The notes below the pieces were generated by a model that was not told the DNA's origin, did no database searches, and saw only the letters and a program-made list of their open reading frames with translations. This document shows, one piece after another, positions 1-52,485 of a stretch of 64,000 bases of DNA. A program made the translations under genes and the position numbers. Origin of the DNA: Candidatus Geothermarchaeota archaeon (GTDB lineage Archaea; Thermoproteota; Nitrososphaeria; Geothermarchaeales; JDFR-13). The stretch lies in NCBI GenBank assembly GCA_015523605.1, contig WAKC01000025.1, forward strand, positions 10,157 to 74,156, in the 5' to 3' direction. Numbering within the stretch: position 1 is the first letter of the stretch; every line of letters starts with the position of its first letter.

Positions 1-1
1 C

Positions 2-313
2 ATCCATATAGCCAGTACAAAAATACCGTTTAAATCGGTCGGTAAAGAGGCTATTGCCGATGTGCCAGAGATTGAGAAGGAGATAGAACTGGCCTTAAAA
101 ATCCTATTCAGGAGATTCCTGAAGTATAGAAGGAAGATTATTAAGAAGAAGGAGGTTGAGAAACGTCTTAAAATCTATGAGAGGTATATCCATTTAATCA
201 GCAAATTCTCTGGGAAACTGGCTGATAGAGAGCCAGCCGATGTTGAGAAGCTCCTAGAAAAGGTTAAGAGACGGTACGGAGTTAAGGAGAAGATAGAATC
301 TACATCCCTATGA
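2..313 (+). CDS. top6B: DNA topoisomerase VI subunit B, C-terminal fragment (5' end lies outside the window)
   Basis: The frame is open from the window edge. In-frame residues IHIASTKIPFKSVGKEAIADV precede the tracked ORF 62..313. This KIP(F/Y)KS.GKE..A motif followed by a basic helical tail matches the conserved Top6B C-terminus as I recall it. The gene converges on top6A. Confidence 0.8.
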   Translation: MHIASTKIPFKSVGKEAIADVPEIEKEIELALKILFRRFLKYRRKIIKKKEVEKRLKIYERYIHLISKFSGKLADREPADVEKLLEKVKRRYGVKEKIESTSL

Positions 314-1381: not shown

Positions 1382-1474
1382 ACCTATCAAAATAAGGTAT
1401 GGACAGACATATAGTAAAGCTTTTAAGAAAAAACCGCTATACAATAATCCATAAACACCAGCAGGGTGGAAAAA

Positions 1475-1672
1475 ATGTCGAAGGAGATAGCGAGGACACC
1501 GCTACTGATAAAAACACTTGCCCTCTTATTACTCCTACTAGGGCTAATACTTATATACCTAACCGCAACATCCCCTGAATTACAGTTAAACCATAAATTA
1601 GTAGGATATATAGTAGGCCTACTATTAACAATAGTCCCAGGATTAATCCTGATATACAACGTAACCGAATAA
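1475..1672 (+). CDS. small membrane protein (2 predicted TM helices), unknown function
   Basis: The tracked ORF starts at GTG 1466 and an in-frame ATG lies at 1475. There are two hydrophobic stretches (LLIKTLALLLLLLGLILIYL and VGYIVGLLLTIVPGLILIY). Confidence 0.45.
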   Translation: MSKEIARTPLLIKTLALLLLLLGLILIYLTATSPELQLNHKLVGYIVGLLLTIVPGLILIYNVTE

Positions 1673-1691
1673 AACCAAAAATTTAAAAACC

Positions 1692-1699
1692 TTTAAATA
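1692..1699 (+). promoter_or_regulatory. TATA-box-like element upstream of tRNA-Asn
   Basis: The sequence tttaaata is centred about 24 nt upstream of the first tRNA nucleotide (1719). This spacing is typical of archaeal TATA-to-start distances. Confidence 0.4.
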
Positions 1700-1718
1700 A
1701 TAATGATATACCTTAGAA

Positions 1719-1821
1719 GCCGCCGTAGCTCAGCTGGAAGAGCACCGGGCTGTTAACCAGCCTAAAACCCCACGGGACAGATACCCGGGGGTCCCCGGTT
1801 CGAGTCCGGGCGGCGGCGCCA
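1719..1821 (+). tRNA. tRNA-Asn (anticodon GTT) with a 27-nt intron (about 1756..1782) and encoded CCA
   Basis: A hand-folded cloverleaf accounts for all 103 nt. Acceptor is gccgccg/cggcggc, D arm gctc-agctggaa-gagc, and anticodon stem ccggg/cccgg with loop ctGTTaa. T arm is cccgg-ttcgagt-ccggg, followed by discriminator g and cca. The 27 extra nt sit after position 37. Confidence 0.9.
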
Positions 1822-1887
1822 TTCTTTCTTAAATTCCATCCTACCTAAATACCTAGATTAAATTCCTGGTTTAGATAATATTTTTTG

Positions 1888-2106
1888 ATGATCAAGGTAT
1901 GGATCTCGAAAGATAAGGATATGATAGCTTTCTACACCGGGGATAAGTGTATAGATATCTTTCTAAAGGAGGAAAGCCTACCTAAGGATAAAGTTAAGAT
2001 TAAGTTCTTTATTGGGGAGAAGATGCTGGAGGAGAGAGTCATAGATACTGGTGAGATAGGGTCGTTAGATGAGTTTATAGAGTTTCTGAAGGGAGTTGAT
2101 GAGTGA
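1888..2106 (+). CDS. hypothetical small acidic protein
   Basis: ORF of 72-73 aa (TTG at 1885, ATG at 1888) with no recognisable motif. It lies just upstream of the ABC ATPase gene. Confidence 0.4.
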   Translation: MIKVWISKDKDMIAFYTGDKCIDIFLKEESLPKDKVKIKFFIGEKMLEERVIDTGEIGSLDEFIEFLKGVDE

Positions 2107-2166
2107 ATCATTCTATCCCCTACAAATATTTTTATAGGGGTTCAAGATTTATTGTAGTGGATACCA

Positions 2167-2874
2167 ATGAATAATGGAATCATCAGGCTCTCAAATGTCA
2201 CTAGGTATTACGAACTGGGGATATCGAGAATATACGCTCTGAAAAATATTGATTTAACGGTTGAAAAGGGAGAGTTTCTGATAGTATTGGGTCCAAGTGG
2301 CTCAGGTAAGACTACTCTACTAAATGTTATAGGGAGTATTGACAAGCCTAATGAAGGTAGTGTCATTGTCGACGGTATAGATCTGACTGCGTTAGATGAG
2401 GATGGTTTGATAGAATATAGAAGGAAGTATGTAGGCTTTATCTTCCAGTTCTTCAACTTGATACCCACATTGACTACCTATGAGAACGTGGCCTTGGCCG
2501 CGGAATTAGTAGATAATCCTATGGACCCCAAGGAGGTGCTTGAAGAAGTTGGTCTTGGGGATAAGCTTGATCATCTACCTAGCCAGTTAAGTGGTGGAGA
2601 GCAGCAAAGAGTAGCTATTGCAAGGGCCTTGGTGAAGGATCCACCTATACTTCTATGTGATGAGCCGACGGGTGAATTAGATTTTGAGACTGGAAGGAGG
2701 ATATTGAAGACTTTGAAGGAGGTTAATGAGAGACATGGGAAGACCATAGTCTTGGTTACGCATAACACACCCATATCTATGATTGGGGATAGGGTTATAA
2801 GGCTTAGGAGTGGGGAGATTGTCGACGAATATATTGTCGAGGAGAAGAAGGATCCCCTAGAGATTGTTTGGTGA
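2167..2874 (+). CDS. ABC transporter ATP-binding protein (MacB/LolD/FtsE-like)
   Basis: Contains Walker A GPSGSGKT, signature LSGGEQQR, Walker B LLCDEPT and H-loop VTHN. Confidence 0.92.
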   Translation: MNNGIIRLSNVTRYYELGISRIYALKNIDLTVEKGEFLIVLGPSGSGKTTLLNVIGSIDKPNEGSVIVDGIDLTALDEDGLIEYRRKYVGFIFQFFNLIPTLTTYENVALAAELVDNPMDPKEVLEEVGLGDKLDHLPSQLSGGEQQRVAIARALVKDPPILLCDEPTGELDFETGRRILKTLKEVNERHGKTIVLVTHNTPISMIGDRVIRLRSGEIVDEYIVEEKKDPLEIVW

Positions 2875-2878
2875 AATA

Positions 2879-5800
2879 ATGTCCATATTACGCAAGAAGC
2901 TCCTAAAAGACATTAAATTTAATAGGATTAAATTCATGGCAACAATAGTCATAGTGATATTTGGAGTCGCTTTTTACGTAGGTCTCTACTCGAGCTATCA
3001 AAACCTTAGATTCTCCATCGATAAAGTCTATTCAGACCTAAACTTTGCGGATATATGGATATCCATCGGCTATTCCGATGGAGAAGAGATAGATAAGAGG
3101 ATTGAAGGGGTAGATGGGATAGCGGACTATGAAAAGAGGCTCGTCATAGAGGCCCCTACATCGTTTGAGATTGATGGAGAAGAATTTATAACTGGGAGAT
3201 TGATCTCGATCCCGTTAGATGGAGAGACTGGGATAAATAAGTTGTTGATTAATAGGGGTAGATATCCTGAGAGACCGGATGAAATACTTGTTGAATATGG
3301 ATTTGCGAAGCATCATAACCTATCCATAGGCGACTCTGTATATATCAAGAATGGAGAGAATCTTCTAGAGCTGGAGATAGTTGGAGTAGCAATATCGCCT
3401 GAGTATCTCTGGCCTGCAAAGACGATATTAGAACATATGCCTGATGTATTGAGAAGATGGGGAGTATTTTACATACCTGAAGAAAAGCTTCAGGAGGCAT
3501 TTGGAATTAAGGGGCTATACAACAATGTTGTATTCAAGGTGGAGGAGGGAGCAGACCCCGAGACTCTAACCAATATATTGAAAGATAGGTTGGGGGATTT
3601 AGGTGTTAGTGAGGCCTTTACTAGGAGGGACCAGCCCAGTAACAATATAATATCCCTATCTGTAGATTCACTAACTACATTAGCAATAGCATTCCCAATA
3701 TTCTTCCTATCAGTCTCCTCAATAGCTACATATATGGTTCTAAGTAGAATTATAGCTATGCAGACGAGGCAGATAGGCCTTCTACAGGCCCTAGGATATA
3801 AGAAAAGGGCTATAATTATACACTATCTAGAATATTCCCTATTTATAGGTATTATTGGAGCTATATTGGGTATAATCCTGGGTGAACTAATTTCGATACC
3901 ATTGACAGATATATTCGCGTCACAGTTAAGCCTACCGTTAACTTTTAGAAGGGTATATCCAAGTCAAATAGCTCTGGGGTTTGGGATTAGCCTACTATTC
4001 ACATTATTCGCCGGGTTCCTATCATCGGTGAAAGCCGTTAAACTATCGCTTATAGAGGCGATGAGGTATACCGGTGTAGATATAAAGAGGATATACAGGA
4101 TTAGAAACGGATTTCTAGCAAAGATATTTAGGAAATCCATATGGAAACTCCCCTTTAGAAATATAAGTAGAAATCCCGTTAGAACAATCTTCACAATATT
4201 CGGTATTGCACTAGGCTTTACAATGATAGTCGTCCCTTACTCATTCAACGACTCGATGGACTACTCCATAGAAGACTATTTCGGCAGAGTCCAGATCTAC
4301 GACGTAAAGGCATACTTCTCAAAACCCTATAACATCTCAATAGTGGATGATGTGGCTGGATGGGATGGAGTTAGAAATGTAGAGCCTTATATCGAGCTCT
4401 ACCTAAGGATTGAGAATGATGGAGAGAGCTGGACGGTCCTAGTTAGAGGGCTAGAGTCCGATACCGAGCTATATAGAGTTGAACCGTTAGAAGGGAGAGG
4501 AGGGCTGAAGAGTGGAGCCCTACTATCCAAGGCATTCCTCTTCGCTTCTAACATTCAAGTTGGAGATGAGGTTACTATAGACATTAAACCGATTAAGAAA
4601 GTCTATTGGATCGAGATGAACAGGACATTTCAGGAGATATATAATGAGACCCTCAACCTAACGCTAAGCCTATCGATGGAAATATCTAATATGAGGGAGA
4701 CATACACCCGGATAAAAAATATGAGTGGGATGCTCGATGAAGCAATAGACGTCTTCTACGGACTACTGTATACATATGTAGAGAATTGGGATGCCACTGT
4801 GAGAAGAGAGTTGATAGAGGGTGGGGGCAACCTCACATTAGAAGAGTTAAATTTAATTGCATATAATGCGACCCAACCATACATTACATACTTGTTGGGG
4901 AGATACGGCTATAACGAGACTATCGTAACCTACTACCTTGGCCAATATATGTTCATATGGAACCAGAACATCTTGAATAACCCAAGCCTAATAAGAGATT
5001 ACAGCCAGGAGACTATCTATAGAGAAGCGGACAAAATCGTTGAGCAGATGGTGACAGAGGTTTCACAATATGGATATATTCCTAGCGAAATCGTTTCAAA
5101 ACTCAATAAAGAATTAGATATCAGAAACTGGAGGGACAGGTCTCTACGTATCCACATATCTTACAATATGATCCCACCTGAATATAGAGTGTATATTGAT
5201 ATTGAGACCTTCAAACAAATGGTGGTAGCAGGTGATTTTAGAGAGTTTATTAAGAGTATCATTATAGACAAGGGAGACTTCAATGTTAAATATCTTGATT
5301 ATATAGATATTCTTCTAGATACCGGAGACCCTGAATATACAGCGAGACTAATGTCGGATGATATAATTGCGGAGATAATATCTAGAAACCCACCTCCACC
5401 TGATCAATATAGCGTTGAAGTTATAGGATTTGCAAATGACCCTGCTGGACTCGCCCTATACATTGATATAGAGACTGCACAGAAGATATTCAGCCTTAGA
5501 AACATGACCATGGGGCTACTTATAGATGTTGATGAGAATTCTCAAGAGAAGGTGATAGATAGACTCTACAGTGAATATGACATCCTATTCATAGAAAACA
5601 GTGCCAATACAAGGAAGGACTGGGTGGAAATGTTAGGCCTATACTCGAATTTCGTCAACGCTATAATCGCTTTTGGATTAACTATATCAGCAGCAATAAT
5701 GTTCAACACTATAAACATAAATATTGAGGAGAGACGTAAGGAATACGCTACCATGAGGACATTAGGAGTTAGAATGAGAGAAATCTTTTGGATATTGACA

Positions 5801-7642: not shown

Positions 7643-7736
7643 GCCCCGGTGGTGTAGCCAGGTCAAGCATACCGGCCTTTCGAGTCTCATTGAAGATAGC
7701 CGGTGAACCCGGGTTCAAATCCCGGCCGGGGCACCA
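7643..7736 (+). tRNA. tRNA-Glu (anticodon TTC) with a 15-nt intron (about 7683..7697) and encoded CCA
   Basis: Hand-folded structure. Acceptor is gccccgg/ccggggc and the anticodon stem ccggc/gccgg has loop ctTTCga. T arm is ccggg-ttcaaat-cccgg, followed by discriminator a and cca. The 15 extra nt (agtctcattgaagat) follow position 37. Confidence 0.88.
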
Positions 7737-7824: not shown

Positions 7825-8982
7825 TTATAGCTCAAAGTCCTCTATAATCCTATTTATAAGATCGTCGATATCATTTGAGATATAGTTTGAATAGTTTCTA
7901 AAGAAGGGGCTTACATCGGGCTCCGTAAAATATGTGTATACCTTCTTCATATGTGTGAAGCCATAGTTCATCTCACTGAGTACACCTGCCGATAATTTAC
8001 TTGTCGGGTAAAATACTATAACCATATCACTCTGGTCTATGAATCGATAGTCTCTATAGACGGTCGAGTCAATGATATAATCTTTAGCCTCCCTAATCTC
8101 CTTCACTGGAATCTCGACATCGAAGAGATCGATATAGACCTTCTCATCATCCTCCTTACCCTCTATGGAGTCTAGGAGGACATGGTCTTCTACCATTATA
8201 GGGTCGAATACGATAATATTATTCTTCCTCAATTTACTTAGGAACTCATTCTTCATCTTATTGAACTCCTCTCTATTCTCGACATGCGTCATTGGATAGC
8301 TTAGATATGCCCTACGTTTTCTAGGCTTCTCACCCCTCATTAGAGGGAGTTCAACATCATATAATAGGTCGTATAGTATGGTGGGATCTGGTTCCTTAAA
8401 ATCTATGTTGGAGGAGGGGATTATATAGAAGTGTTTATCCAGCATATCTGCAACCATCTTCGTTATAAACATCTCCTCATCCTGCCATATCAGAAGCTCC
8501 TTAATCGTCAACTTACCTCTCCAAGGATGTAACTCAGGGTCTTTATCAATCCGCCCTCTGATATTACCGACCGAATCTATAATGGTTATAAGAACGTCCG
8601 GAGCGACTTTAGTCAGATAGTAGTAGTCGAAGGCCGGCATCAAAACCTTCTTCCATCGAAAACTCATATGAAGACTTATATACAGGTCCTCATTGGAGTC
8701 GTCACCCCTAAACTTATCAATCCTATGTACGATACCCTCGAAGACTGTGGCCCTCAAGAAACGTAATGCAGTCTCATCCAAGTCAAGAATCTTATCACCA
8801 GGTATCTCCACTCTAAGGCTACTAGCCTTTGTAAACATCTCAGGGCCTACATCAATAATATCCACATTACGCCCCTTCCCACCGGCATACTCCCTAGTGG
8901 CATGTAGATATTTAGCCCTTCCAGAGCCGGTTATCCCTGTGCCTAAAACAATCATTGCAAAAATAAATTTATGGATGCCCAC
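7825..8982 (-). CDS. two-domain protein: N-terminal P-loop-like NTPase/kinase domain fused to a C-terminal nucleoside 2-deoxyribosyltransferase-like (NDT/Rcl-type) domain
   Basis: The N-terminus carries VLGTGITGSGRAKYL, a GxxxxGK[ST]-like loop with R in place of K. The C-terminal 150 aa contain AYLSYPM and then DQSDMVIVFYPTSKLSAGVLSEMNYGFTHMKKVY. That resembles the (Y/F)LAGP ... D.vv ... S.G...E.G.A pattern of NDT-like Rossmannoid domains. Confidence 0.5.
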   Translation of the reverse strand: MGIHKFIFAMIVLGTGITGSGRAKYLHATREYAGGKGRNVDIIDVGPEMFTKASSLRVEIPGDKILDLDETALRFLRATVFEGIVHRIDKFRGDDSNEDLYISLHMSFRWKKVLMPAFDYYYLTKVAPDVLITIIDSVGNIRGRIDKDPELHPWRGKLTIKELLIWQDEEMFITKMVADMLDKHFYIIPSSNIDFKEPDPTILYDLLYDVELPLMRGEKPRKRRAYLSYPMTHVENREEFNKMKNEFLSKLRKNNIIVFDPIMVEDHVLLDSIEGKEDDEKVYIDLFDVEIPVKEIREAKDYIIDSTVYRDYRFIDQSDMVIVFYPTSKLSAGVLSEMNYGFTHMKKVYTYFTEPDVSPFFRNYSNYISNDIDDLINRIIEDFEL

Positions 8983-9621: not shown

Positions 9622-10170
9622 TCATTCTACACCATATTCTTCAATGATTTTACTGACCTCCCTCAGAATCTCATCTAGAGTATCCTCATCCCTCTTCTTA
9701 CGCTTCTCCTCCTTCTTCTCCTCCTCCCTCTTCTCTTCCTTCTTCTCCTTCTTCGGGGGTTTCAACCGCCTCTCCAACTCAGAAATCCTACTCTCCAACT
9801 GCCTCCGCTTCTCCTCATACTCCTTAACAAGCCTCTCATACTCCTCTTTCAAAGACTCAAGCTCTGCATACTCCCTTAGAGATGCGAGTCTAGACTCGAT
9901 CTCATCCAATTCAGACTCAAATTTACTTACCAACGCATCCTTCAACTCCTCACTAATCTTCCCCTCCTCATACTGTTTATAGACGTTTAATATGGCGGTC
10001 TTAATAACCTCCCTTCTAAGCTCTAACTCCTTAACCTGGGAACGGTAGCTCACACCATGGGTTACAACGGAATTCTTAGGAGAAGGTGATGATGTCAATC
10101 TATAGCTTGAATATAACATAGCTATTGATGAAGCAAGTATCGTGGCTGGAATAATATACTCAACAACCAT
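9622..10170 (-). CDS. N-terminally membrane-anchored coiled-coil protein with a Lys/Glu-rich tail
   Basis: One N-terminal TM (IIPATILASSIAMLY) is followed by heptad-like E/K/L-rich sequence and the run KKEKKEEKREEEKKEEKRKKR. Its stop lies 1 nt from the DedA start. Confidence 0.6.
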   Translation of the reverse strand: MVVEYIIPATILASSIAMLYSSYRLTSSPSPKNSVVTHGVSYRSQVKELELRREVIKTAILNVYKQYEEGKISEELKDALVSKFESELDEIESRLASLREYAELESLKEEYERLVKEYEEKRRQLESRISELERRLKPPKKEKKEEKREEEKKEEKRKKRDEDTLDEILREVSKIIEEYGVE

Positions 10171-10206
10171 AATTAACCAAACTTAAAGATACACGGCAAT
10201 AGAATA

Positions 10207-10521
10207 TTAATTTTTTGTCTTATACCCCTTCCTATAGACATGCCCACATAACAGGCACTTCACCGCAACATGTTTATAGGGACGGCTTCTAACCCTATAA
10301 ACCGCGTTAACACCTGGAAGCAAAACCTCTTTACATTTTTTACAATAGAAAAGTTTAAGATGAGCGGGGAGTCTAGTACGAGTCTTCATAGAGATCCTCT
10401 TTAAAAGCTTAAGATATTTGATCCGATACTCCCTAGGAACGTCTGAATACAACATATAATTCAACTCTTTAAACAGTCTCTGGGCAACCTTCCTAGCCCT
10501 CCTAGAAACCATATCAAACAT
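10207..10521 (-). CDS. rnp4: RNase P protein component 4 (Rpp21/Rpr2)
   Basis: Basic helical N-terminus plus a C-terminal zinc ribbon (CKKC...18 aa...CLLCGH). At 104 aa it has the typical size. Confidence 0.85.
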   Translation of the reverse strand: MFDMVSRRARKVAQRLFKELNYMLYSDVPREYRIKYLKLLKRISMKTRTRLPAHLKLFYCKKCKEVLLPGVNAVYRVRSRPYKHVAVKCLLCGHVYRKGYKTKN

Positions 10522-10576
10522 AAATATTAGAGTCTAGACGATTAAATTACCATCAAAAACAAATATTCATCTTATA

Positions 10577-11230
10577 ATGAGTAGGATACGGATCGTCATT
10601 GCTGATGCACAGCTTGAAACAGTTCCTGAACAGCTCTGGAACGAAAACGCGGTAAAAAATGATTCTAAAAGGAGGAAGAGACATCCCAGTAAAATATTAC
10701 TGTATACGCCCATCCACTATACTGCTATGCTGAAACACGGTATAAATGTTAAAAGACGTGGAAGGCCGGATATAACCCAAGATATCCTAAAGGCAATTAT
10801 AAACCATCCTCTGAATAGGGAATTAGATATAGAGATCTACATCTATACAATCAATGGAGAACTTTTCTGGATAAGTAGTAAGACTAGGATCCCTCATAAC
10901 TACTACCAGTTTGAGGGATTGATGGTCCAACTCCTTAAAAAGGGTATGGTACCTCCAGATACCGGAGAATTTATGAAGAAGATGGATATAAATCTTGATG
11001 AACTGCTCAAGGGTGATGTATACCTTTTACATGAGGATGGGATAGACATCGACGAAACAACATTCCCCATGGATAGAACGTTAACATTCGTTATAGGGGG
11101 GTTTCAAGAAGGTGATTATAGCGAGAAATTCCATAGGATTAGAAATAGGATAAGCGTGTATAAGGAACCATTATATGCAGGAACCGCAGCTTGTATACTT
11201 CTCACAAGACTCTGGAGGATGACAAGATAG
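10577..11230 (+). CDS. nep1: rRNA small-subunit pseudouridine methyltransferase Nep1 (EMG1, SPOUT)
   Basis: Nep1-like N-terminus (IVIADAQLETVPEQL), an RGRPDITQDIL motif, and typical archaeal Nep1 length (217 aa). Confidence 0.8.
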   Translation: MSRIRIVIADAQLETVPEQLWNENAVKNDSKRRKRHPSKILLYTPIHYTAMLKHGINVKRRGRPDITQDILKAIINHPLNRELDIEIYIYTINGELFWISSKTRIPHNYYQFEGLMVQLLKKGMVPPDTGEFMKKMDINLDELLKGDVYLLHEDGIDIDETTFPMDRTLTFVIGGFQEGDYSEKFHRIRNRISVYKEPLYAGTAACILLTRLWRMTR

Positions 11231-11253
11231 GATAGACCGGAGAATGTAGTTAC

Positions 11254-11526
11254 TTACACAACACCACCAAGTAATATGTTAAACACTATCAATACAATTA
11301 GGATGATAATGGCTGAGACTCCGAGAATATCCCTCCTCCTAAACTGGTTGTGAAAGGCTATAATGAGGAGAGTAAGGGAAGGGAGATATATCAGATAAAC
11401 AACTTTAAAGATGTATTTAAGTGGGAGAACATCTTGTAGAGATACTAGTACAGCTACTATAGAGGATATAACTAGACTTATAAGTAGCATATATCTAACC
11501 ATCCTCCTATTAGATATAGAGTTCAC
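11254..11526 (-). CDS. small membrane protein (3 TM), unknown function
   Basis: The 90-aa ORF is strongly hydrophobic. It overlaps the stop of the TauE-like gene by 4 nt, which suggests translational coupling. Confidence 0.5.
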   Translation of the reverse strand: MNSISNRRMVRYMLLISLVISSIVAVLVSLQDVLPLKYIFKVVYLIYLPSLTLLIIAFHNQFRRRDILGVSAIIILIVLIVFNILLGGVV

Positions 11527-12287
11527 ATAGACACACCCTTCAAAACCATGATAAAGGCGAATAACATCATTACAATTGCGAATATCTTCCTAAGGATATA
11601 AGCCTCGGTCCTCAAGCTAACCCTACTCCCTAGTTGAGCCCCCAATACAGAGGCTAGAAAAGCTGAGCCTAGATATTGTATGTTTATCTTTCCAGCATTT
11701 AAATATATAAAGCTCCCTGTGAACGAAGTGATTGCAATCATATACTCACTAGTTCCAATCGCGATCTTCATAGGTACATCTAGATATAAGGTCATTATCG
11801 GTACCTTGAGAATCCCACCGCCAATACCCAGTAATCCAGATAAAAGACCCGCTATAAAGGAGGCTACAAAACCATTTAACATCTTTAACCTCCCAATTCT
11901 AGGGAGCCTCTCAATCTTCTCTTTAGATCCCCCTCTAAACATCACCAAACCAATATAAACAAGGGTAAAGCCAAACACTATGAATAACATTTTAGAAGGT
12001 GTGTATAGAGCGATATTAGCGCCTGCGATTGCCCCCAATACACTTGCAACCTCGAGGATCGATCCCAATTTAAAATCTACATTACCCTCAACAACATAAT
12101 TTAGTGATGCGGATGTGGAGACTCCAACTATTGATATGAGACTCAAACCAATGGCTTCATGTATGGGGAGGCCTAATAAGACACTGAGTAGAGGAACCAT
12201 TAAAAAGCCTCCTCCCAAACCTATTAACGATCCTAGAAAGGCCGATGAAAATATTATGATAAATATCCATACAATCACATCCAACAT
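11523..12287 (-). CDS. TauE/SafE (DUF81) family anion/sulfite exporter-like permease
   Basis: Seven to eight TM helices with the duplicated glycine motif GLGGGFLMVPLL and GIGGGILKVPIM. Confidence 0.8.
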   Translation of the reverse strand: MLDVIVWIFIIIFSSAFLGSLIGLGGGFLMVPLLSVLLGLPIHEAIGLSLISIVGVSTSASLNYVVEGNVDFKLGSILEVASVLGAIAGANIALYTPSKMLFIVFGFTLVYIGLVMFRGGSKEKIERLPRIGRLKMLNGFVASFIAGLLSGLLGIGGGILKVPIMTLYLDVPMKIAIGTSEYMIAITSFTGSFIYLNAGKINIQYLGSAFLASVLGAQLGSRVSLRTEAYILRKIFAIVMMLFAFIMVLKGVSM

Positions 12288-44872: not shown

Positions 44873-45472
44873 ATGAGAAGGATGTTAAACAAGCTGAGGA
44901 AGAAAATATCGAAATATAATGAATTTTCAGCTCAAAAGATTGAAAAAACTGGTTTGTCTCCCTCCACTATTACCTTACTTGGGTTCATAACTACTATATC
45001 CTCTATAATACCCCTCATATATTTTCCTGAGCCCTTGAAATATCTCCTATTTATAGCGGTAATCCTGCTGGCCGGATACATGGATATGTTAGATGGAGCG
45101 CTAGCAAGATATACAGGACAAGTATCTAAAAAAGGTGCATTTACAGATTCTACTCTAGATAGGATAACCGATACCGTTATAGTTATTTATCTCTATATAG
45201 GAGGGATAACGTATAACACGCTTCTATTGATACTTCTTGTATCTACATCTATCCTAATATCTTATGTAAGAGCCAGGGCCGAGGCTCTAGGCCTTAATAT
45301 GCAAGGGATAGGCTTAATGGAGAGAGCAGAGAGGATATTGTTCATCCTATCTGCAATATTGGTTGGAAAAATTCTTAACCTCATAGATATAGACATCCTA
45401 CTTTGGGTACTTGTAATCCTAAACATAATAACAATAGTACAGAGAATATCATATACACTTAAGAACATGTAA
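44873..45472 (+). CDS. CDP-alcohol phosphatidyltransferase family protein (archaeal lipid head-group synthase)
   Basis: The signature D-G-x2-A-R-x8-G-x3-D-x3-D is present as DMLDGALARYTGQVSKKGAFTDSTLDRITD, and the protein has 5-6 TMs. Confidence 0.88.
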   Translation: MRRMLNKLRKKISKYNEFSAQKIEKTGLSPSTITLLGFITTISSIIPLIYFPEPLKYLLFIAVILLAGYMDMLDGALARYTGQVSKKGAFTDSTLDRITDTVIVIYLYIGGITYNTLLLILLVSTSILISYVRARAEALGLNMQGIGLMERAERILFILSAILVGKILNLIDIDILLWVLVILNIITIVQRISYTLKNM

Positions 45473-46874
45473 ATTGGAAAATTCTTTTAGTCTCACCTAA
45501 AGCCCTGAAACTAAGTTTATCTACTTTTATGACCACAGGCATATCTGAAACGACATTACCCAGTATCAAACACGACCCCCGATTTATATCCTTAACTATC
45601 GACTTCACAGTATCCGTATCAACAGCTGAGATCCGCGAAAGCACCTCAAGATCCTTATCATTAAGGAATCTGAAGATGAAAATATTATCAAGTTGCCGGA
45701 AAATCATATGCCCAAGAGAATCTGGTTGGTTAGTTATAAATATCATAAACAATCCGAAATGCCTCATCCTCGTAACTACATCCTCCCAATAGGTATCCCT
45801 GACATATAGATGTGCCTCTTCTGCGAATAAGAAGAATGGTGGGATCACATTCTTCTCAAGTAGTTTAGAGAGTTTACTTAAAAGGATCTCCACTAAGATC
45901 TTCTTCTCTACCGATGATAAATCCCTAAGATTTATTATATAGCCCTTCACTCCATCCCTGAACATATTATTTAGGTCTAATGTAGTGCTCTCCCCGATAA
46001 AACGACATGACTTTAGTGCATTCAACCTATGTATGATAGCATCTTTCACCATCAAGTTTTTGATGTATAGATTAGTGATTCTATCAAGTAGATCCAAAGT
46101 TATTTTTTCGTTTCTATTCCTGGCTATGTCCCATACCTCTCCAAATAGATTTACAGATACACTAGGGAGACCTAATATATTGGTAAACACGTTGATTAAA
46201 GTCTCCTTACCAAGATATTCGATGTCGAATATGAAGTTTTTACCTGGTTCTAGAACAATGATGCCGTCCTCTTCAGAAAGGCCTAGATACTCACTATTTA
46301 TATCCAGTATTATAAATCTCGCTCCAAGCTTCGAAAAATGATATGCAAGAAGCTTTGCAAGATGAGATTTTCCACTCCCCTTCATTCCTGTGATCAGAGT
46401 TAGTGAACCGTCGAGATGGAAAGCATCCACAATAAACTCATTCCCAGACATATCCCTTCCCAGTCTAACGGGATACATAACCTCGCCTCGGACCATATTC
46501 AAAAGTTGGTTTGGGGAGATCCTATAAATTTCAGAGGAAAGTCTAGATGGGAGATCATCAATGAAATTTATAAGTTTACCATTTTTAACTGCACCACGGA
46601 TTTTACATTTTAATATTTTGATATCATTGATCAGTGATGTTACCCTATCATACTTGCCTCCTCCATCTATGTAGATACTATCTCTAAACAACCCCTCTCT
46701 TATCACATCCTCCAGTAGGCCAGGTACTTCGATATATTCGAAATCAATAACCTGCACAATAAGACCTAGCTCCTTTGATTCGTCCATAATCATTAGATAG
46801 TCTCCTTTATGCACTGTTTCGCCAGGATATGCTACAACCTCTATAAGCTCTCCATCCTTTCTAAAAAGTTTCAT
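45459..46874 (-). CDS. HerA/FtsK-superfamily ATPase (DUF87-type, HerA paralogue)
   Basis: Shows an N-terminal HAS-barrel-like region (GELIEVVAYPGETVHKGDYLMIMD...GLIVQVIDFE), Walker A ITGMKGSGKSHL and Walker B FFLFAEEAHLY. ATG 46874 is preceded by GGAGGG, and the tracked GTG start is at 46883. Confidence 0.8.
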   Translation of the reverse strand: MKLFRKDGELIEVVAYPGETVHKGDYLMIMDESKELGLIVQVIDFEYIEVPGLLEDVIREGLFRDSIYIDGGGKYDRVTSLINDIKILKCKIRGAVKNGKLINFIDDLPSRLSSEIYRISPNQLLNMVRGEVMYPVRLGRDMSGNEFIVDAFHLDGSLTLITGMKGSGKSHLAKLLAYHFSKLGARFIILDINSEYLGLSEEDGIIVLEPGKNFIFDIEYLGKETLINVFTNILGLPSVSVNLFGEVWDIARNRNEKITLDLLDRITNLYIKNLMVKDAIIHRLNALKSCRFIGESTTLDLNNMFRDGVKGYIINLRDLSSVEKKILVEILLSKLSKLLEKNVIPPFFLFAEEAHLYVRDTYWEDVVTRMRHFGLFMIFITNQPDSLGHMIFRQLDNIFIFRFLNDKDLEVLSRISAVDTDTVKSIVKDINRGSCLILGNVVSDMPVVIKVDKLSFRALGETKRIFQFTCS

Positions 46875-47865
46875 GCATACCACCCTCCAGAGGACCTATA
46901 ACTGCTGATCTATGAGTAATCGAGGATTTAATAGAGCCACCCATCTCCATAATTACTCTATAGAGACCCAAAACATCCCTATACTTCAATTTAGATACTG
47001 TGTGGGCCTCAATCAATACACTAGGATAACCGAATCCATTCGATGGAAGGGAATAAATAACATTGAGATATGATGAAGGAGTATTACTCGAAATATCTAC
47101 TCTAAACGGCATGCCACTCTTAACGTTAAAATACCCTACAAAAGTCGAAGAAATATGATTCAACCTATCAACCTTAACAAAACCATCAACCCCAAACTTC
47201 TTTAGATAAATCATGGTCTCAAAATACTTCTTTATTAATCTACTCCTCTTAGACACCCCCACAATTCCTACTGAATTCTGGTGCAACGCGCCTAAAAGTT
47301 CATTATAAAGATGCCTTCTTAATATGGGCGATTCTATCGCGCCATCAATGAGGAGGATATCATACCCTCCATAATTTACCAATTCATTTAAAATGTTGAA
47401 CTCATAAATCGTCACAAGAATCTTTTTAGCTATATATGTATCATAGATAGATGAGAATAGACTGTTCAAACCTAGTCTTACATATCTATGTAGATATTTT
47501 ACGACCTCCGGAGTGTAATAGACGAGTGTTGGCCCATACACCTTAATAGAGTAACTATCGTCTCCAGCATCGAATACTACAGCTGCACCCCTGACAGCGT
47601 AGAGGATTCCTTTTACCGATTCGGCTATAGGAATAATAGAGGTATCTATCCCTACCACCTTAATATTATTTACATCGACCTTCTCAAGTTTCATAACGTC
47701 TAAATCGATCTCAACATCAATAGAATTCACATCGAAGAGTGGGAAATACGACATCAACCTCCTGGGCAACCGCGTAATAAACTCGCTCTTTCTCACATAA
47801 TCTAAGGAGAGCTCTGCAACCTCGTCAAACGTTGGAAGGCGTTCTTTAGTTTTTTGAAATTTCAT
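46861..47865 (-). CDS. NurA-domain nuclease-like protein
   Basis: Motifs occur in NurA order: VVGIDTS, YEFNILNE, ILLIDGAI, VGVSKRS and GYPSVLIEAH. Its 3' end overlaps the HerA-like start by 14 nt. Confidence 0.7.
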   Translation of the reverse strand: MKFQKTKERLPTFDEVAELSLDYVRKSEFITRLPRRLMSYFPLFDVNSIDVEIDLDVMKLEKVDVNNIKVVGIDTSIIPIAESVKGILYAVRGAAVVFDAGDDSYSIKVYGPTLVYYTPEVVKYLHRYVRLGLNSLFSSIYDTYIAKKILVTIYEFNILNELVNYGGYDILLIDGAIESPILRRHLYNELLGALHQNSVGIVGVSKRSRLIKKYFETMIYLKKFGVDGFVKVDRLNHISSTFVGYFNVKSGMPFRVDISSNTPSSYLNVIYSLPSNGFGYPSVLIEAHTVSKLKYRDVLGLYRVIMEMGGSIKSSITHRSAVIGPLEGGMHETF

Positions 47866-47895
47866 AACTCTTCATGAATATTATTGAACAATACT

Positions 47896-47908
47896 GATAT
47901 TTAAATAT
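47896..47908. promoter_or_regulatory. palindromic TATA-like element (atatttaaatat) shared by divergent genes
   Basis: A perfect 12-bp palindrome lies in the 68-bp spacer. It is about 31 nt from the NurA-like ATG (47865) and about 27 nt from the plus-strand ATG (47934). Coordinates may be off by 1 nt. Confidence 0.45.
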
Positions 47909-47933
47909 TTCTTTTGACAAATTTTATGTTAGG

Positions 47934-48323
47934 ATGAGTGGTGAAGATAATATTAAAGTGAGGATGAGGGTTGGGGATATGGAACTAGAGATTGAGGGGC
48001 CACCTGAGAAGATTTCCCATGTTATTTCCCAGATAATGGGTAATGTGGGAGTTTCTACAGAGAAGAAGGAAGTGGATAAAATTCCGGGAAAGTCTTGTAA
48101 AGAGATTATAGAGGACTTATGGAGAGAGGGTTGGTTTTCACAGGAGAGAAGATTAGCAGATGTATATAGGGAATTGACTGTGAGAGGATATAATTTTGAC
48201 AAGAGCGCCATATCACATGCATTATCAGCTCTAACTAAAGAGGGTATATTAAGGAGGGTTGGTAGGGAAAGGAAGTACAGGTATATCCAAAAATATCCAT
48301 ATAAGCAGGTGGTTCGAGATTAA
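47934..48323 (+). CDS. two-module protein: N-terminal short beta-beta-alpha module plus C-terminal winged helix (paralogue 1 of 3)
   Basis: The N-terminus is IKVRMRVGDMELEIEGPPEKISHVISQI. The C-terminus GWFSQERRLADVYRELTVRGYNFDKSAISHALSALTKEGILRRVGRERKYRYI follows an H2-turn-H3-wing pattern. Confidence 0.65.
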   Translation: MSGEDNIKVRMRVGDMELEIEGPPEKISHVISQIMGNVGVSTEKKEVDKIPGKSCKEIIEDLWREGWFSQERRLADVYRELTVRGYNFDKSAISHALSALTKEGILRRVGRERKYRYIQKYPYKQVVRD

Positions 48324-48330
48324 AAACGGG

Positions 48331-48816
48331 CTAACTCAATTTATTCATGACATATAGTAGACCTCTAACTGTAATCCTGTATTTCGTATGTTTATTTTCA
48401 CGCATTTTTTCAATGTATCCCTGACTTCTTAATTCACTCAGTCTGGAGGACACTGACTTTTGAGAGGAAGAAAGTATTTTTGAGAGTTCATCTAGGGTTG
48501 ATGCGTCACTCTCTCTATGTCCAGCATCGTATAATATCTTCATCAGCGACAGAGTAACTAATATTTTAAGATGCATCGATAGGGAAGAGGCCTTCTCCAT
48601 TAAGTAAATACTTCCATCGTTTGTGGTTTTTATATATTCAGATATAACCTCCGAAAGTTCTAGGTAATCTGGATCTTGGAAGAGTTTCACTGCTACATCA
48701 AAGCCTGGGATGTTACGGTTTAACCATTCAAAGACCTTTTTCGAGACTTCTTTTGGGCTACCTCTAAACTCAACCTCAAGACCCTCATATTTAATACGTA
48801 CTTCTAAGTCCTTCAA
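48331..48816 (-). CDS. two-module protein, paralogue 3 (divergent) of the same family; MarR-like wHTH at the C-terminus
   Basis: The N-terminus is LEVRIKYEGLEVEFRGSPKEVSKKVFEWL and the C-terminus is STLDELSKILSSSQKSVSSRLSELRSQGYIEKMRENKHTKYRIT. The TTG start immediately follows the TAG of the upstream paralogue. Confidence 0.6.
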   Translation of the reverse strand: MKDLEVRIKYEGLEVEFRGSPKEVSKKVFEWLNRNIPGFDVAVKLFQDPDYLELSEVISEYIKTTNDGSIYLMEKASSLSMHLKILVTLSLMKILYDAGHRESDASTLDELSKILSSSQKSVSSRLSELRSQGYIEKMRENKHTKYRITVRGLLYVMNKLS

Positions 48817-49281
48817 CTACTTCTCACCTATCACTGGCGTAGATGTTACATACTTGAATACTCCATCCTTACCTTTAATTCTTCTTAAAACACCTTTTTC
48901 AACCATCCTCTTGAGGGTGACGGCTATAGTGCTTTTGGGATAGTATAGACCAAACATAGTAAGTGTGTCCATAACCTCACGAAGACTTCTAGGGGTCCTT
49001 CCCCATCCACTATAAAACATTTTATTAAGGATATCCGCTAGACTGTCGGAAGATGATATCTTTATATTGGGAATATCATCATAGGATGCTTCATCAACGG
49101 CTTTCTTCGTTTCTTCTTTAGATTCGACTAATTCTTTGGAGGGAGATATATGTTGCGACACTTGGAATCTATCCAAGATCTTATTAAGAAATTCTTCAAC
49201 AACCTCTTTTTCACCTGTAATTTCAAGCTCTAAAGACCTATTACCATATTTATAAACTAGTTTAAGAGATACGTTACTCAT
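48817..49281 (-). CDS. two-module protein, paralogue 2 of the same family
   Basis: The N-terminus is LKLVYKYGNRSLELEITGEKEVVEEFLNKIL and the C-terminus is GWGRTPRSLREVMDTLTMFGLYYPKSTIAVTLKRMVEKGVLRRIKGKDGVFKYV. Its ATG overlaps the gatE stop by 8 nt. Confidence 0.65.
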   Translation of the reverse strand: MSNVSLKLVYKYGNRSLELEITGEKEVVEEFLNKILDRFQVSQHISPSKELVESKEETKKAVDEASYDDIPNIKISSSDSLADILNKMFYSGWGRTPRSLREVMDTLTMFGLYYPKSTIAVTLKRMVEKGVLRRIKGKDGVFKYVTSTPVIGEK

Positions 49282-51169
49282 TAATCAACTCCTCCACAAT
49301 ATTAACTACAATCTTTGCGTCTATTAAGCCTCTATATCTCTCCATAGCTATACCGATTAACCTTTTCTTCCTAATATTCGGCGGTAAACTTGAAATGTCG
49401 CTCCTTTGGTTTAACACCTCCCTCAAATAATTCTTCACCTCTTCCACCGACACCTTCTCAGATTTATATTTTTCGATGGACTCCTCGACGGATATACCTT
49501 TGCATACATTTTTAAGAATCTCTTCTATAGATTCTTTAACTATATCTCCATCGCTCAATGCTTTGAAAATTTTCTGGAATACTTCCTCATTGATCTTAGA
49601 GATGTCATATCCTTCCCTCTCTAAAGCTTTGGGGATACTTACTAGTACATGATAGATATATCCACTACCCACCATCTCACCATATTCTTCAAACAATTTT
49701 ATGAAGAGGTCTACCAAATCACTATCCAGAAGCTCTTCTGCCATATCATTCGATAACCCAAACCTCTCTCTCAACATGGAGAGAGTCTCCTCAGGCTCTA
49801 CAATTCTTATCTTAGAAACGTTTTTAAGCAACTCTTGGTCTACCACTATAGGTGGGATATCCGTCTCAGGATACATCCTAGCCATACCTGGCCTCGGACG
49901 CATATAGTAGGTTTTACCGTCTTCAGTGGCACCTCTCGTTTCATAGGGCACTCCTGCGAAGGCTTCCACGATTCTTTCTATTATTTTATCACGTATCAAT
50001 GGGAGTTGATCATCATTGAATAATCCAATCATGATAAACGCATCTCTATCACTCAGATTTAAGAGAGACCCCACTTTATCAACCTCATTTATGGAGATCC
50101 CGTAATTAGGAAGTTCATCGCTATGGAAGAGTCCTGTTATCCCCGTCCAGAATCTAATTCTCTCTAGGATCTCCCTCGCAAAAGTTTTATCTACGATTTT
50201 ATATCCTAGAAATCCTTTGAACCCGGAGATTTTTAGAGCATAGAAACGCCCCCCTCGATTCAAGATACGTCTAACAATTCTTGACTGTGAAGTAGCTAAT
50301 GCCTCTGAGACATCCATAAAATCTGAAACCTCAAGGGAATCGGGTGTTAACCCTGATTTAATAAGTAAATCTTTTAATTCAAGTAATTTAACATGGCGAT
50401 TAAATTCATAATCGACTACCTTCCCAAGGGTATCTAGCTTCTGAATCCCCTTAATCTCAACAATAGTGCCATTCATGATGGATATATTAACATCTTGTCT
50501 TACGCTTCCAAGTCCTGGCCTTTTATAACCTGTGGATCTGACTAGTCGACCGATATACTGAGCAACTTTAACGGCCTCCTCTGGAGAATTAATATCTGGT
50601 GCTGTGGCAACCTCTATAAGGGGAATACCCAGTCTATCCAGGCTATAAACTACTTTATCTTGCTTTCTATCAATAAGTCTAGCTGCTTCTTCCTCCACTG
50701 TAATTGTTTGTACCCCATATTTCTTACCATCCAGTGAGAAACTACCATCATAAGCTACTACAGCTGTACGCTGGAATCCAGTGGTGTTAGAACCATCTAC
50801 AACGATTTTCCTCATAAACTGGATCTCATCAACTATCTTCATATCGAAGAATTTTGCAAGCCTTATAGCAACTTCTATTGACTTTATATCTGGATAGTGA
50901 GGTGGCTCTTCATCTGTCTCCACTAGACAAGTGCTATTGGGAGGAGCGATATACTCGATTATAAGGCCCTTCTCAAACTCAAATAGTGCGGCGGGATCTA
51001 TCTGACCGAGCTCACTCTGTGTAGGACGTAGTCTACGTATTAATCTAATACCTTCTGGTGATTCAGAAAACTCTGGTGGACACTTGCAGAAGAGCTTCCT
51101 ACCTGTATCGAGTTGAAAGTGTATCTCGAGACCGACTTTTAAACCATATTCTTCGTATATGTTCATCAT
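49274..51169 (-). CDS. gatE: Glu-tRNA(Gln) amidotransferase subunit E
   Basis: 631 aa with a GatB/E-like core (GLEIHFQL, CKCPPEF, SLVRQDVNIS-like GSVRQDVNIS) and the archaeal insertion domain. It overlaps gatD by 4 nt. Confidence 0.93.
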   Translation of the reverse strand: MMNIYEEYGLKVGLEIHFQLDTGRKLFCKCPPEFSESPEGIRLIRRLRPTQSELGQIDPAALFEFEKGLIIEYIAPPNSTCLVETDEEPPHYPDIKSIEVAIRLAKFFDMKIVDEIQFMRKIVVDGSNTTGFQRTAVVAYDGSFSLDGKKYGVQTITVEEEAARLIDRKQDKVVYSLDRLGIPLIEVATAPDINSPEEAVKVAQYIGRLVRSTGYKRPGLGSVRQDVNISIMNGTIVEIKGIQKLDTLGKVVDYEFNRHVKLLELKDLLIKSGLTPDSLEVSDFMDVSEALATSQSRIVRRILNRGGRFYALKISGFKGFLGYKIVDKTFAREILERIRFWTGITGLFHSDELPNYGISINEVDKVGSLLNLSDRDAFIMIGLFNDDQLPLIRDKIIERIVEAFAGVPYETRGATEDGKTYYMRPRPGMARMYPETDIPPIVVDQELLKNVSKIRIVEPEETLSMLRERFGLSNDMAEELLDSDLVDLFIKLFEEYGEMVGSGYIYHVLVSIPKALEREGYDISKINEEVFQKIFKALSDGDIVKESIEEILKNVCKGISVEESIEKYKSEKVSVEEVKNYLREVLNQRSDISSLPPNIRKKRLIGIAMERYRGLIDAKIVVNIVEELINE

Positions 51170-52485
51170 CTCGACCTCACAAAGCTCCTCGGAATAATCT
51201 CATTTGCAATGTTTACAGGCATCAACTCGGCCAGGGCATCCTCTCCATAATTTCCTATTACCCAGCTAGCCTTAACATATGCAGTCTCAGACAACATATT
51301 CTCCAAGGGAATTACACCTATTTTCAAAAGTTCTCTGCCAGTATCATACACATTGAGATTTACACGACCCCAGATACATTGAGACGTCATAAAGACCTGA
51401 ATACCAGATCTAATTACATCCTTCAAGACACTAATAACCTTATCTGAAACATGCCCCAGACCCGTCCCCTCAACCACAATCGCTTTATAGTCATTCATAA
51501 AGAACTTGAATATCTCGGGTGACATCCCAGGATAAAACTTGATAAGAGCCACCCTCTTAGAAAATAAGGGTTTAAAATCCAGGGTATCCTCACCACGCCT
51601 CTTTAATGTCAACTCTTCTATAAAATCTTCATAAAGTATTTCAGAGTAGTTTCTAATATACGCGATTGGGGGTACATCGATTGATTGAAATGCAGATCTA
51701 ATGCTTGTATGGTTCTTCCTCACTCTAGTACCTATATGGACAGCGACCAAGTCGTCCGAGGAGGAGTGATGCATAGCCACATAAACCCCAGAATATCTGA
51801 AATTACCAGCTAGATACAATGCTGATAGTAGATTCATGGCCGCATCAGAGCTCGGCCTATCACTGGACCTCTGTGAACCCACTAATATCACAGGTATTCC
51901 AATACCTTTTAGAGCAAAGCTTAAAGCTGCACTTGTATATCCAAGCGTATCCGTACCATGAAGAACTACTATACCATCCCATCTCTCCCTATATGCTTGG
52001 AAGACTTTTTCAGTAATATACTTCCAATCATCTTGGGTTAGATGTTCACTATATTTACTCATTATAATCTCGGTATCAATATCCGCGATATCGAGAACTT
52101 CCGGAATAATATCTATAAGTTCATCTGGATCAACAGCGGATCTCACCCCACCAGTTCTATAATCGACTTTACTAAGTATCGTTCCACCGACAGCTAATAT
52201 CTTAACCCTGGGTAGATCAGATCTTCTACCGCGTCTCTTCCTAATGACTTGGGGAATGCTACTTTCTTCATGATACTCGGCCTTCTCAATCCTACTGATT
52301 TTTGAGATGTGAATTCCTATATTATAACCGCTCTTAAGCTTTAGAATTACCGTCTCTTCATGGGAAAACATGTGTTTCGGCATTAATACACCCTGAAGTT
52401 TAGATCCATCAACCAAATGGATAACCACATAATCTCCATATTTAACTCCAAATTTTTCTAGAAAAAGCTCAGCTAAAGTCTTCAT
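51166..52485 (-). CDS. gatD: Glu-tRNA(Gln) amidotransferase subunit D (asparaginase-like)
   Basis: Carries asparaginase-type motifs GGTILSK and VLHGTDTLGYTSAALSF. Its 439-aa length is typical of GatD. Confidence 0.93.
   Translation of the reverse strand: MKTLAELFLEKFGVKYGDYVVIHLVDGSKLQGVLMPKHMFSHEETVILKLKSGYNIGIHISKISRIEKAEYHEESSIPQVIRKRRGRRSDLPRVKILAVGGTILSKVDYRTGGVRSAVDPDELIDIIPEVLDIADIDTEIIMSKYSEHLTQDDWKYITEKVFQAYRERWDGIVVLHGTDTLGYTSAALSFALKGIGIPVILVGSQRSSDRPSSDAAMNLLSALYLAGNFRYSGVYVAMHHSSSDDLVAVHIGTRVRKNHTSIRSAFQSIDVPPIAYIRNYSEILYEDFIEELTLKRRGEDTLDFKPLFSKRVALIKFYPGMSPEIFKFFMNDYKAIVVEGTGLGHVSDKVISVLKDVIRSGIQVFMTSQCIWGRVNLNVYDTGRELLKIGVIPLENMLSETAYVKASWVIGNYGEDALAELMPVNIANEIIPRSFVRSR

Follow-up and report, generated by a model that had tools for sequence, protein, structure and literature searches.

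ArsR/SmtB proteins (SmtB, CzrA, BigR, SqrR) are winged-helix proteins that typically act as local repressors by binding palindromes. The FtsK gamma winged helix, functionally coupled to an ATPase of the FtsK/HerA superfamily, reads FtsK-orienting polar sequences (KOPS), and several winged-helix units could read one DNA site. The canonical Mre11-Rad50-HerA-NurA system includes a DUF87/HerA-type ATPase and a NurA-domain protein, and no winged-helix partner of it was found described in the literature searched. Here we describe three open reading frames (ORFs), named genes A, B and C, in a stretch of 64,000 nucleotides (hereafter the window) of contig WAKC01000025.1 from a Candidatus Geothermarchaeota archaeon. 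Their products are paralogues with a small N-terminal module (N-module) and a C-terminal winged helix, and gene A is linked to genes for a NurA-like nuclease and a HerA-like ATPase, referred to as nurA2 and herA2. The same literature search gave no description of the three proteins or of the motif in the A promoter. The promoter region shared by A and nurA2 contains operator-like palindromes, deeply conserved and unique within the window. Based on the sequence data, and with somewhat less than even confidence, we favour the view that A, B and C are ArsR-like winged-helix DNA-binding proteins that oligomerise through the N-module, and that A is a local regulator of nurA2-herA2 and A, probably a repressor and autoregulator.

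Among the described families, ArsR/SmtB proteins were the top matches, in both sequence and fold, for B and A. The winged-helix core and the recognition pattern SQxxVSxxLxxL are common to these repressors and A/B, and B also carries the extra C-terminal helix. The C-terminal half of B, modelled with AlphaFold2 (AF2), superposes on BigR, SqrR and CzrA with template-modelling (TM) scores of 0.46-0.66 (target-normalised) and E values of ~3e-3. Sequence scores stay below the family cut-offs, B reaching 19.2 bits against 22 for HTH_5 (PF01022) and 21.7 against 55 for NCBIfam NF033788, and A 14.6 against 55 for NF033788, with no match for C. In contrast to ArsR/SmtB proteins, A and C are devoid of the alpha1/alpha5 dimerisation helices (the A model has no helix after the wing), the metal and redox ligand sets of that family are missing in A, B and C, and an unrelated N-terminal beta-beta-alpha module plus linker stands ahead of the winged helix.

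Among Pfam models, that of BlaI/MecI/CopY (Penicillinase_R, PF03965) comes closest to the A/C-type winged helix; it is matched by C with 22.7 bits (cut-off, 22.6), over profile positions 13-62 of 115 only, and by 9 of 30 A-type members at E<0.01. BlaI, however, begins with the winged helix and ends in a helical dimerisation domain, whereas C has the reverse order, with the winged helix last and nothing after it; unlike in BlaI systems, no BlaR-type sensor protease partner is present. The MCM C-terminal winged helix (PF21100) gives 25.7 bits for A (cut-off, 27) and is matched by 3 of the 30 A-type members; by this score, and as a free-standing protein of 129 aa with no MCM helicase, A falls outside that family. 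The top Foldseek match of B in PDB is AspA of the Sulfolobus plasmid pNOB8 (4rs8; E=2.7e-3; TM 0.73, target-normalised; not significant), a small archaeal ArsR-like winged-helix protein that binds a centromere and recognises a palindrome. Only the C-terminal half of B aligns with AspA and, unlike the AspA system, the locus has no ParA or ParB neighbours.

In Pfam, NCBIfam, PHROGs and PADLOC, the C-terminal parts otherwise matched only generic winged-helix models, below threshold, and the N-module matched none, and sequence-profile searches of PDB with the A+C family, the B family or the N-module alone gave nothing significant. The N-module profile came closest in PDB, without significance, to de novo designed proteins of beta-hairpin-helix form and to the closing beta-alpha unit of a KH domain (E=0.25). 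Foldseek comparison of the B and A models with PDB returned only generic winged-helix repressors (ArsR/SmtB, MarR, Fur, BlaI/MecI, AspA and similar), all at E≥2.7e-3 and over the winged helix only. Comparison of B with BFVD likewise gave generic winged-helix matches (E≥1.7e-3), and the N-terminal half of B was without match in both PDB and BFVD. The first-pass annotation of this DNA, made from the sequence alone, had recognised no named domain in the N-terminal module, in agreement with the searches of Pfam, NCBIfam, PHROGs, PADLOC and PDB sequences and with Foldseek against PDB and BFVD. It had also allowed for an already characterised regulator family, but no Pfam, NCBIfam, PHROG or PDB family covers A, B or C, and public annotation calls them 'hypothetical protein' or 'predicted transcriptional regulator'. 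With its new N-terminal module, the family represents a previously undescribed variant of winged-helix regulators.

The three ORFs lie exactly at the positions first annotated, with the quoted N-terminal strings, and family comparison supports the proposal that they are paralogues sharing the N-module. At the sequence level A and C are unambiguous full-length paralogues, with E=2e-12 and 27% identity in BLASTP, and E=2e-13 (98%) for narrow and 8.6e-17 (98.8%) for broad family alignments in hhalign; the motif GW..R.L..V...L...G....KS.I...L......G.LRR........Y, noted earlier for two members, was confirmed for these two. B is far more divergent, being matched to A in BLASTP over the first 23 residues only (E=0.004) and giving no match to C in pairwise BLAST. 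Since family profiles recover its homology to both A and C, B can be counted as a member of the family: narrow A-B alignments matched over 27 N-terminal columns (E=4e-6, 87%), and broad alignments gave E=1.5e-6 (90%) for B-C and E=1.8e-5 (78%) for A-B, each covering the N-module and the winged helix. All three proteins carry a hairpin of the form h-K/R-h-K/R-h..G..E-h-E-h-(E/G), where h is hydrophobic, followed by an amphipathic helix, and the C-terminal basic winged helix with a (K/Q)(S/T)x(I/V)(S/A)xxL recognition helix is likewise present throughout the A/B/C family. A strict N-module pattern (alternating hydrophobic and basic residues, Gly turn, h-E-h-E/D, then helix) was detected in 223 of 351 family members as against 4 of 351 shuffled controls. 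The N-terminal similarity, which the first annotation had made subject to a significance test, is supported as homology by both the profile E values and the shuffled controls.

A word-indexed search yielded 10-12 clusters per protein, labelled Geothermarchaeota. The tiny, Geothermarchaeota-only family that this would imply was overturned by an exhaustive HMMER search with an A+C profile and by a two-peptide scan of one genome per GTDB species. The wide phyletic spread of the family, which had been left to be defined, is apparent from the 1202 clusters at 50% identity that HMMER detected at E≤1e-3, including 213 at E≤1e-10. The top 149 clusters consist of 71 A-type and 78 C-type, most of them 130-170 aa in length with the N-module. 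A-type genes were found in at least 382 species-level genomes, and the best 80 of these 382 belong to Nitrososphaeria (orders Geothermarchaeales, Conexivisphaerales, Nitrososphaerales, Nitrosopumilales and Nitrosomirales) and Bathyarchaeia. As judged from these sequence comparisons, A, B and C are three ancient orthologous groups across two archaeal classes, ammonia oxidisers included. The word 'triplicated' in the first annotation brings a local event to mind, but the triplication is ancient: orthologues of each paralogue are found separately in Nitrososphaeria and Bathyarchaeia, and a recent local triplication was rejected for this reason.

For analysis of the A promoter, the 110 nt upstream of A were compared in the window and 80 loci. 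In the window, A (ATG at 47934) and nurA2 (ATG at 47865) share a palindromic TATA box, ATATTTAAATAT, which lies about 26 nt ahead of the predicted transcription start of either gene, and TATTTAAA does not vary among nine related loci. The blocks TGAA..TTCAT (which holds the nurA2 ATG), TTCATGAA and (A)TTGAA are all invariant in Geothermarchaeales, the window among them. In Bathyarchaeia a perfect 12-bp inverted repeat, TTGCGCATCTTG-NN-CAAGATGCGCAA, stands directly after the TATA box, and in ammonia oxidisers TTGCGCAAC(A/T)TG..CAA..CAACAA follows the TATA box on the A side, with TTGTTCATGTTGAACAAT over the nurA2 start. Palindromes of the type TTGNNCAA were identified upstream of A in 68 of 79 loci, at a density of 15.4 per kb as compared with 0.35 per kb elsewhere in about 1 Mb of these loci (about 45-fold), and TTG[CT]GCA[AT] is about 90-fold enriched upstream of A; these counts are inflated by the relatedness of the loci, which span two classes. 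The window contains a single copy of TTCATGAA and of the bipartite TTCATGAA-N5-TTGAA. An operator profile built from sequence only scored 41.8 bits on its training site (47852-47892), whereas no other position in the window exceeded 11.7 bits. Some lineages have the motif in the reading frame of A, but in L037 it is out of frame and in L074 a stop in frame comes after it, indicating that the motif is conserved at the DNA level. The recognition helix of A differs with operator type, reading D(R/K)SAI at loci of the TTCATGAA and AT-core type and D(R/K)TAV at loci of the TTGYGCAW type.

Two observations may be added on these sites. The 11.7-bit match at 44911-44929 (minus strand; E=0.015; TGAA..TTCA-type) is located 38 nt inside the gene for a CDP-alcohol phosphatidyltransferase abutting herA2, and is probably a chance match. 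In ammonia-oxidiser loci, gene callers start A at an ATG inside the TATAAATG box (among them L015 at 7975-8012, L037 and L038), giving A N-termini such as MLRNL... and MLLNM... (P0039, P0045). Because this ATG is out of frame or followed by a stop in several lineages, such extensions are probably promoter/operator DNA and not protein; in L015 there is no alternative ATG for the A start.

Domain structure was predicted with AF2 for A and B as monomers. In the A model, the N-module consists of strands 8-12 and 17-21 and helix 24-36, with a predicted local distance difference test (pLDDT) score of 53-68, and the winged helix consists of helices 55-64, 74-83 and 90-102 and wing strands 106-109 and 116-119; the recognition helix reads DKSAISHAL. 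In the B model (mean pLDDT, 87), the N-module has strands 4-10 and 13-19 and helix 21-35, and a strongly conserved insert of about 60 residues follows (pLDDT 85-94; helices 39-47, 51-58 and 74-78, strands 62-64 and 70-72), which in the model resembles a further winged helix in degenerate form. C-terminally, B comprises helices 81-97, 108-115 and 122-131, two wing strands and helix 150-160. The winged helix recognised earlier at the C-terminus of each protein holds and is ArsR-like and basic, the winged-helix parts showing pI 9.8-10.0 and net charges of +5 to +7 as against a pI of about 5 for the N-terminal parts (4.9 in A). The acidic or Ser-rich linker described for all three is retained for A, by AF2 disorder, and for C, from its sequence, but B has the confidently folded insert instead. 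The recognition helices fit the ArsR-type pattern (S/D)(Q/K)(K/S)(S/A)(V/I)S..L, and the blocks LWREGWF, DKSAISH and YRYIQKxP are near invariant in the A family.

The N-module is predicted with low confidence in A alone and with high confidence in B, where the large confident insert follows, as would fit a module in need of a partner surface. In five members (P0090, P0101, P0111, P0116 and P0118) its place is taken by CxxC-(17-22 residues)-HxxC plus a helix, which is probably a zinc-stabilised equivalent, judging from the sequence. That the N-module can be replaced in this way fits a small, self-contained beta-beta-alpha unit. The exchange also agrees with a different reading, in which A, B and C are three independent one-component regulators, the N-module is a sensor or ligand element, for example for redox sensing through a Cys of A, and the clustering of the genes is inherited gene order. 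A-type proteins contain a near-invariant Cys55 (48096-48098), opening the first helix of the winged helix, and an invariant His95 (48216-48218) within the recognition helix, and the two residues could form a redox or metal switch. Against a sensor role, the 30-residue beta-beta-alpha unit, with its conserved hydrophobic face and salt-bridged K/R-E strands, shows no obvious ligand pocket.

In the mechanism that we propose, an A oligomer held together by N-modules would bind the palindromic array of TTCATGAA and TTGAAC half-sites, and the equivalent sites of A in other lineages would be palindromes of the type TTGCGCAA. As the array is situated between the shared TATA box and the transcription start, binding of A would block recruitment of RNA polymerase, leading to repression of a bidirectional promoter that serves both the nurA2-herA2 operon and the A gene itself. 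B and C would be made together from a gatDE-C-B transcript by coupled translation and would probably act as a B-C heteromer of the same kind. The type of protein, a DNA-binding repressor, is suggested by the ArsR-type recognition helices and by the best matches being ArsR/SmtB, MarR, BlaI and Fur repressors, and the role of A as a local repressor and autoregulator by the deep conservation of the operator-like palindromes within a shared divergent promoter and their uniqueness in the window. The first-pass annotation had suggested a hetero-oligomeric assembly 'rather than a single repressor'. For A this is not favoured in view of the operator-like palindromes shared with nurA2-herA2, and an assembly is less likely than a local regulator; a three-way A-B-C assembly is further weakened because in roughly half of the lineages B and C do not adjoin A.

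Several points weigh against the local-regulator view. Another factor could bind the palindromes, the enrichment counts come from related loci and do not represent independent events, phylogeny confounds the co-variation of recognition helix and operator, and the regions ahead of C and gatD yielded no operator-like motif. A is also unusually conserved for a local regulator, as seen in its three near-invariant blocks, which hints at an additional protein-protein role. Finally, the fusions of A-type winged helices with HerA/FtsK-type ATPases described below point to a physical, not purely regulatory, link.

The gene neighbourhood of A was analysed in 63 loci with sufficient flank, using ORFs called in the fetched loci and classified by family hidden Markov models and phmmer. 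In all 63, a HerA-like gene is located within 2.5 kb on the divergent side of A, and in at least 52 a NurA-like gene lies between the two, the other loci keeping a gap of about 1 kb. In 31 of 59 loci, B and C are both present downstream of A at a distance of no more than 4.6 kb; the two are hardly ever separated (together in 31 of 32), and in many lineages their genes abut or share 1-4 nt. Of the 33 loci with B or C in the vicinity of A, 30 have the order gatD-gatE-C-B, and these include Nitrososphaeria as well as Bathyarchaeia; the full order gatD-gatE-C-B / A / nurA-herA is kept in the most distant Geothermarchaeales relatives. Both the invariant HerA-like/NurA-like link and the gatDE-C-B operon are additions to the context first annotated.

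The canonical HerA-NurA pair resembles the overlapping herA2-nurA2 operon in combining a DUF87/HerA-type ATPase with a NurA-domain protein. The herA2 product, however, reaches only 36.8 bits in NCBIfam HerA_Thermprot, against a cut-off of 800. No Mre11 or Rad50 gene was found adjoining nurA2-herA2 (no Rad50 query was run), and no canonical HerA or NurA relative was detected within the window. In the Bathyarchaeota locus L045 (B24_G1), positions 1-4200 contain a canonical NurA (484 aa, 55 bits), a canonical HerA (543 aa, DUF87 130 bits) and a Mre11-like phosphoesterase, directly adjoining the A-linked HerA2/NurA2, so that two HerA-NurA systems coexist. By sequence, the A-linked HerA2/NurA2 is a distant paralogue pair and not the canonical end-resection pair. 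In PADLOC, HerA2 matches mad8 (62 bits) and several defence HerA models, partially only, and NurA2, A, B and C have no defence-specific matches. Since the locus keeps its synteny with housekeeping genes in both classes, a defence island is argued against; with an even GC content over the region as well, an origin from a mobile element or defence island was considered unlikely.

The 63 of 63 linkage of A to herA2-nurA2, over very long evolutionary distances, is also what would be expected if A, possibly together with B and C via N-modules, were a physical DNA-targeting or loading subunit of HerA2-NurA2 similar to FtsK gamma, the palindromes being incidental or autoregulatory. Three proteins outside the window (P0103, P0165 and P0166) combine a P-loop ATPase with a long coiled coil (predicted) and, at the C-terminus, an A-type winged helix with the signature LWxEGxF ... 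YxYxQKxPP, and such Rosetta-stone-like fusions, together with the strong conservation of the helix-1 motif LWxEGWF, which does not face DNA, would agree with a physical association. Three paralogues with a common module would also suit a multi-winged-helix reader. FtsK gamma is in addition the best fold match of B in BFVD (E=1.7e-3, rmsd 13.9), which is not significant. The fused ATPases, however, are only distantly related to HerA2 (BLASTP E ~1e-3) and are not orthologues: only P0103 and P0166 match DUF87/HerA and phrog_2666 'terminase large subunit', resembling HerA/FtsK-type packaging ATPases, and P0165 has no Pfam or PHROG match. Scans of viral contigs and phage tblastn for the context of these fusions found nothing. 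In FtsK the winged helix is coupled to the ATPase, whereas in the window it is a separate protein; with no significant sequence or fold match, the likeness to FtsK gamma is an analogy only. About half of the loci have no B and C around A, and regulators are classically arranged as A is, in divergent orientation with operator-like palindromes. On balance a physical subunit, although the strongest of the alternatives, appears doubtful; if true, it would add a new accessory layer to an archaeal helicase-nuclease system. A more elaborate form, in which A, B and C make up a multi-winged-helix reader that loads or directs HerA2-NurA2 onto specific DNA as a five-component machine, in the manner of a trans-acting FtsK gamma/KOPS system, is distinctly improbable. 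If correct, a previously undescribed DNA-processing machine would exist throughout Nitrososphaeria and Bathyarchaeia.

In a metagenome scan for the same context, the only relative found was a 572-aa ATPase with 27% identity to P0165, encoded in L088 (Ga0207702_10000115, 9818-11536). It ends in a winged-helix-like segment (GFF...GFLTREG), and the locus is high in GC, phage-like and bacterial. Its neighbours include large ORFs resembling, by eye, RecA-, SbcD/SbcC- and terminase-type proteins.

The same neighbourhood data bear on the reading as three independent regulators, which agrees with the roughly half of loci where A has no nearby B and C, and with the absence of a shared operator upstream of C. 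On the other hand, B and C are translationally coupled as well as almost always found together, and they stay within a few kb of A even where gatDE is not adjacent (L030, L056, L084). Together with the structure of the N-module, these observations make independent regulators unlikely. For B and C, the almost constant adjacency and coupled translation make pairing of the two proteins probable.

The gatDE linkage raises a further possibility, namely that C and B work together with GatDE, for instance as winged-helix accessory proteins that bind tRNA or RNA in the formation of Gln-tRNA, and that only A is tied to DNA repair. The overlapping or abutting frames of gatD-gatE-C-B in the window and the recurrence of this order in both classes would agree with such a role. 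The three loci that keep B and C near A without adjacent gatDE argue against it, as do the separate upstream spacer of C in several lineages (about 60 to 130 nt or more) and the recognition helices of B and C, which are of the DNA-binding ArsR type; moreover, archaeal operons often mix unrelated housekeeping genes. A role with GatDE is thus judged very improbable. None of these readings excludes another, the local-regulator view of A included.

The features of the locus are listed below.

Table. Features of the A/B/C locus in the window (positions in nucleotides of the window; aa, residues of the protein).
Feature	Position	Strand	Details	Basis
Gene A	47934-48323	+	129 aa	ORF call
Gene B	48331-48816	-	161 aa, TTG start	ORF call
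Gene C	48817-49281	-	154 aa	ORF call
nurA2, NurA-like nuclease gene	46861-47865	-	divergent from A	Pfam NurA, 24.4 bits vs 21 cut-off
herA2, HerA-like ATPase gene	45459-46883	-	Walker A GMKGSGKS	Pfam DUF87/HerA central domain, E=9e-12
gatD	51166-52485	-		ORF coordinates; Pfam labels of orthologues
gatE	49274-51169	-		ORF coordinates; Pfam labels of orthologues
A/B convergent junction	48321-48333	.	7 nt	A stop 48321-48323, B stop 48331-48333
Divergent nurA2/A intergenic promoter region	47866-47933	.		sequence
Palindromic TATA box	47897-47908	.	ATATTTAAATAT	sequence
Operator-like array	47852-47892	.	between TATA box and nurA2 start	invariant blocks, nine-locus alignment
TGAAATTTCA	47855-47864	.	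overlaps nurA2 start codon 47863-47865	
Palindrome TTCATGAA	47871-47878	.		invariant block
TTGAAC	47884-47889	.		invariant block (A)TTGAA, 47884-47888
A N-module, beta-hairpin + helix	aa 6-36, nt 47949-48041	+		AF2
A disordered linker	aa 39-51	+		AF2, pLDDT <50
A basic winged helix	aa 52-122, nt 48087-48299	+	pI 9.8	AF2
B N-module	aa 3-35, nt 48712-48810	-		AF2
B conserved helical, winged-helix-like insert	aa 36-97, nt 48526-48711	-		AF2
B ArsR-like winged helix + C-terminal helix	aa 98-161, nt 48334-48525	-		AF2, Foldseek
C N-module	aa 5-38, nt 49168-49269	-		sequence
C acidic linker	aa 39-75	-		inferred from sequence
C winged helix	aa 76-150, nt 48832-49056	-		sequence

The present results define a large family in ecologically dominant archaea, ammonia oxidisers and Bathyarchaeia, that has no Pfam or NCBIfam model. 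Newly defined with it are the unnamed N-terminal module, the invariant link to a second, unstudied HerA-NurA-like pair, and a deeply conserved operator-like element. They offer an entry point to transcription control, and possibly to DNA-damage responses, in lineages that are poorly tractable.

On the minus strand, the start of C overlaps the 3' end of gatE by 8 nt and, by the ORF coordinates, the start of B directly abuts the stop codon of C. From these overlapping or abutting coordinates and the recurrent gene order, gatD-gatE-C-B is probably one operon. A T5 run (CCCGTTTTTAA) resembling archaeal oligo-T terminators immediately follows the B stop on the minus strand, and may act as the terminator. 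As listed, herA2 has a GTG start (MVCMKLF...) that gives a 23-nt overlap with the nurA2 stop (46861-46883), and the ATG three codons further in (MKLFRKDG...) is the more likely start. With either start the two genes overlap, indicating coupled translation of nurA2 and herA2.

Elsewhere in the window, two additional tRNAs were detected on the plus strand by Rfam, at 1719-1818 (57.9 bits, 100 nt) and 7643-7733 (53.9 bits, 91 nt). Both were missed by ARAGORN, and their length suggests that they are intron-containing archaeal tRNAs.

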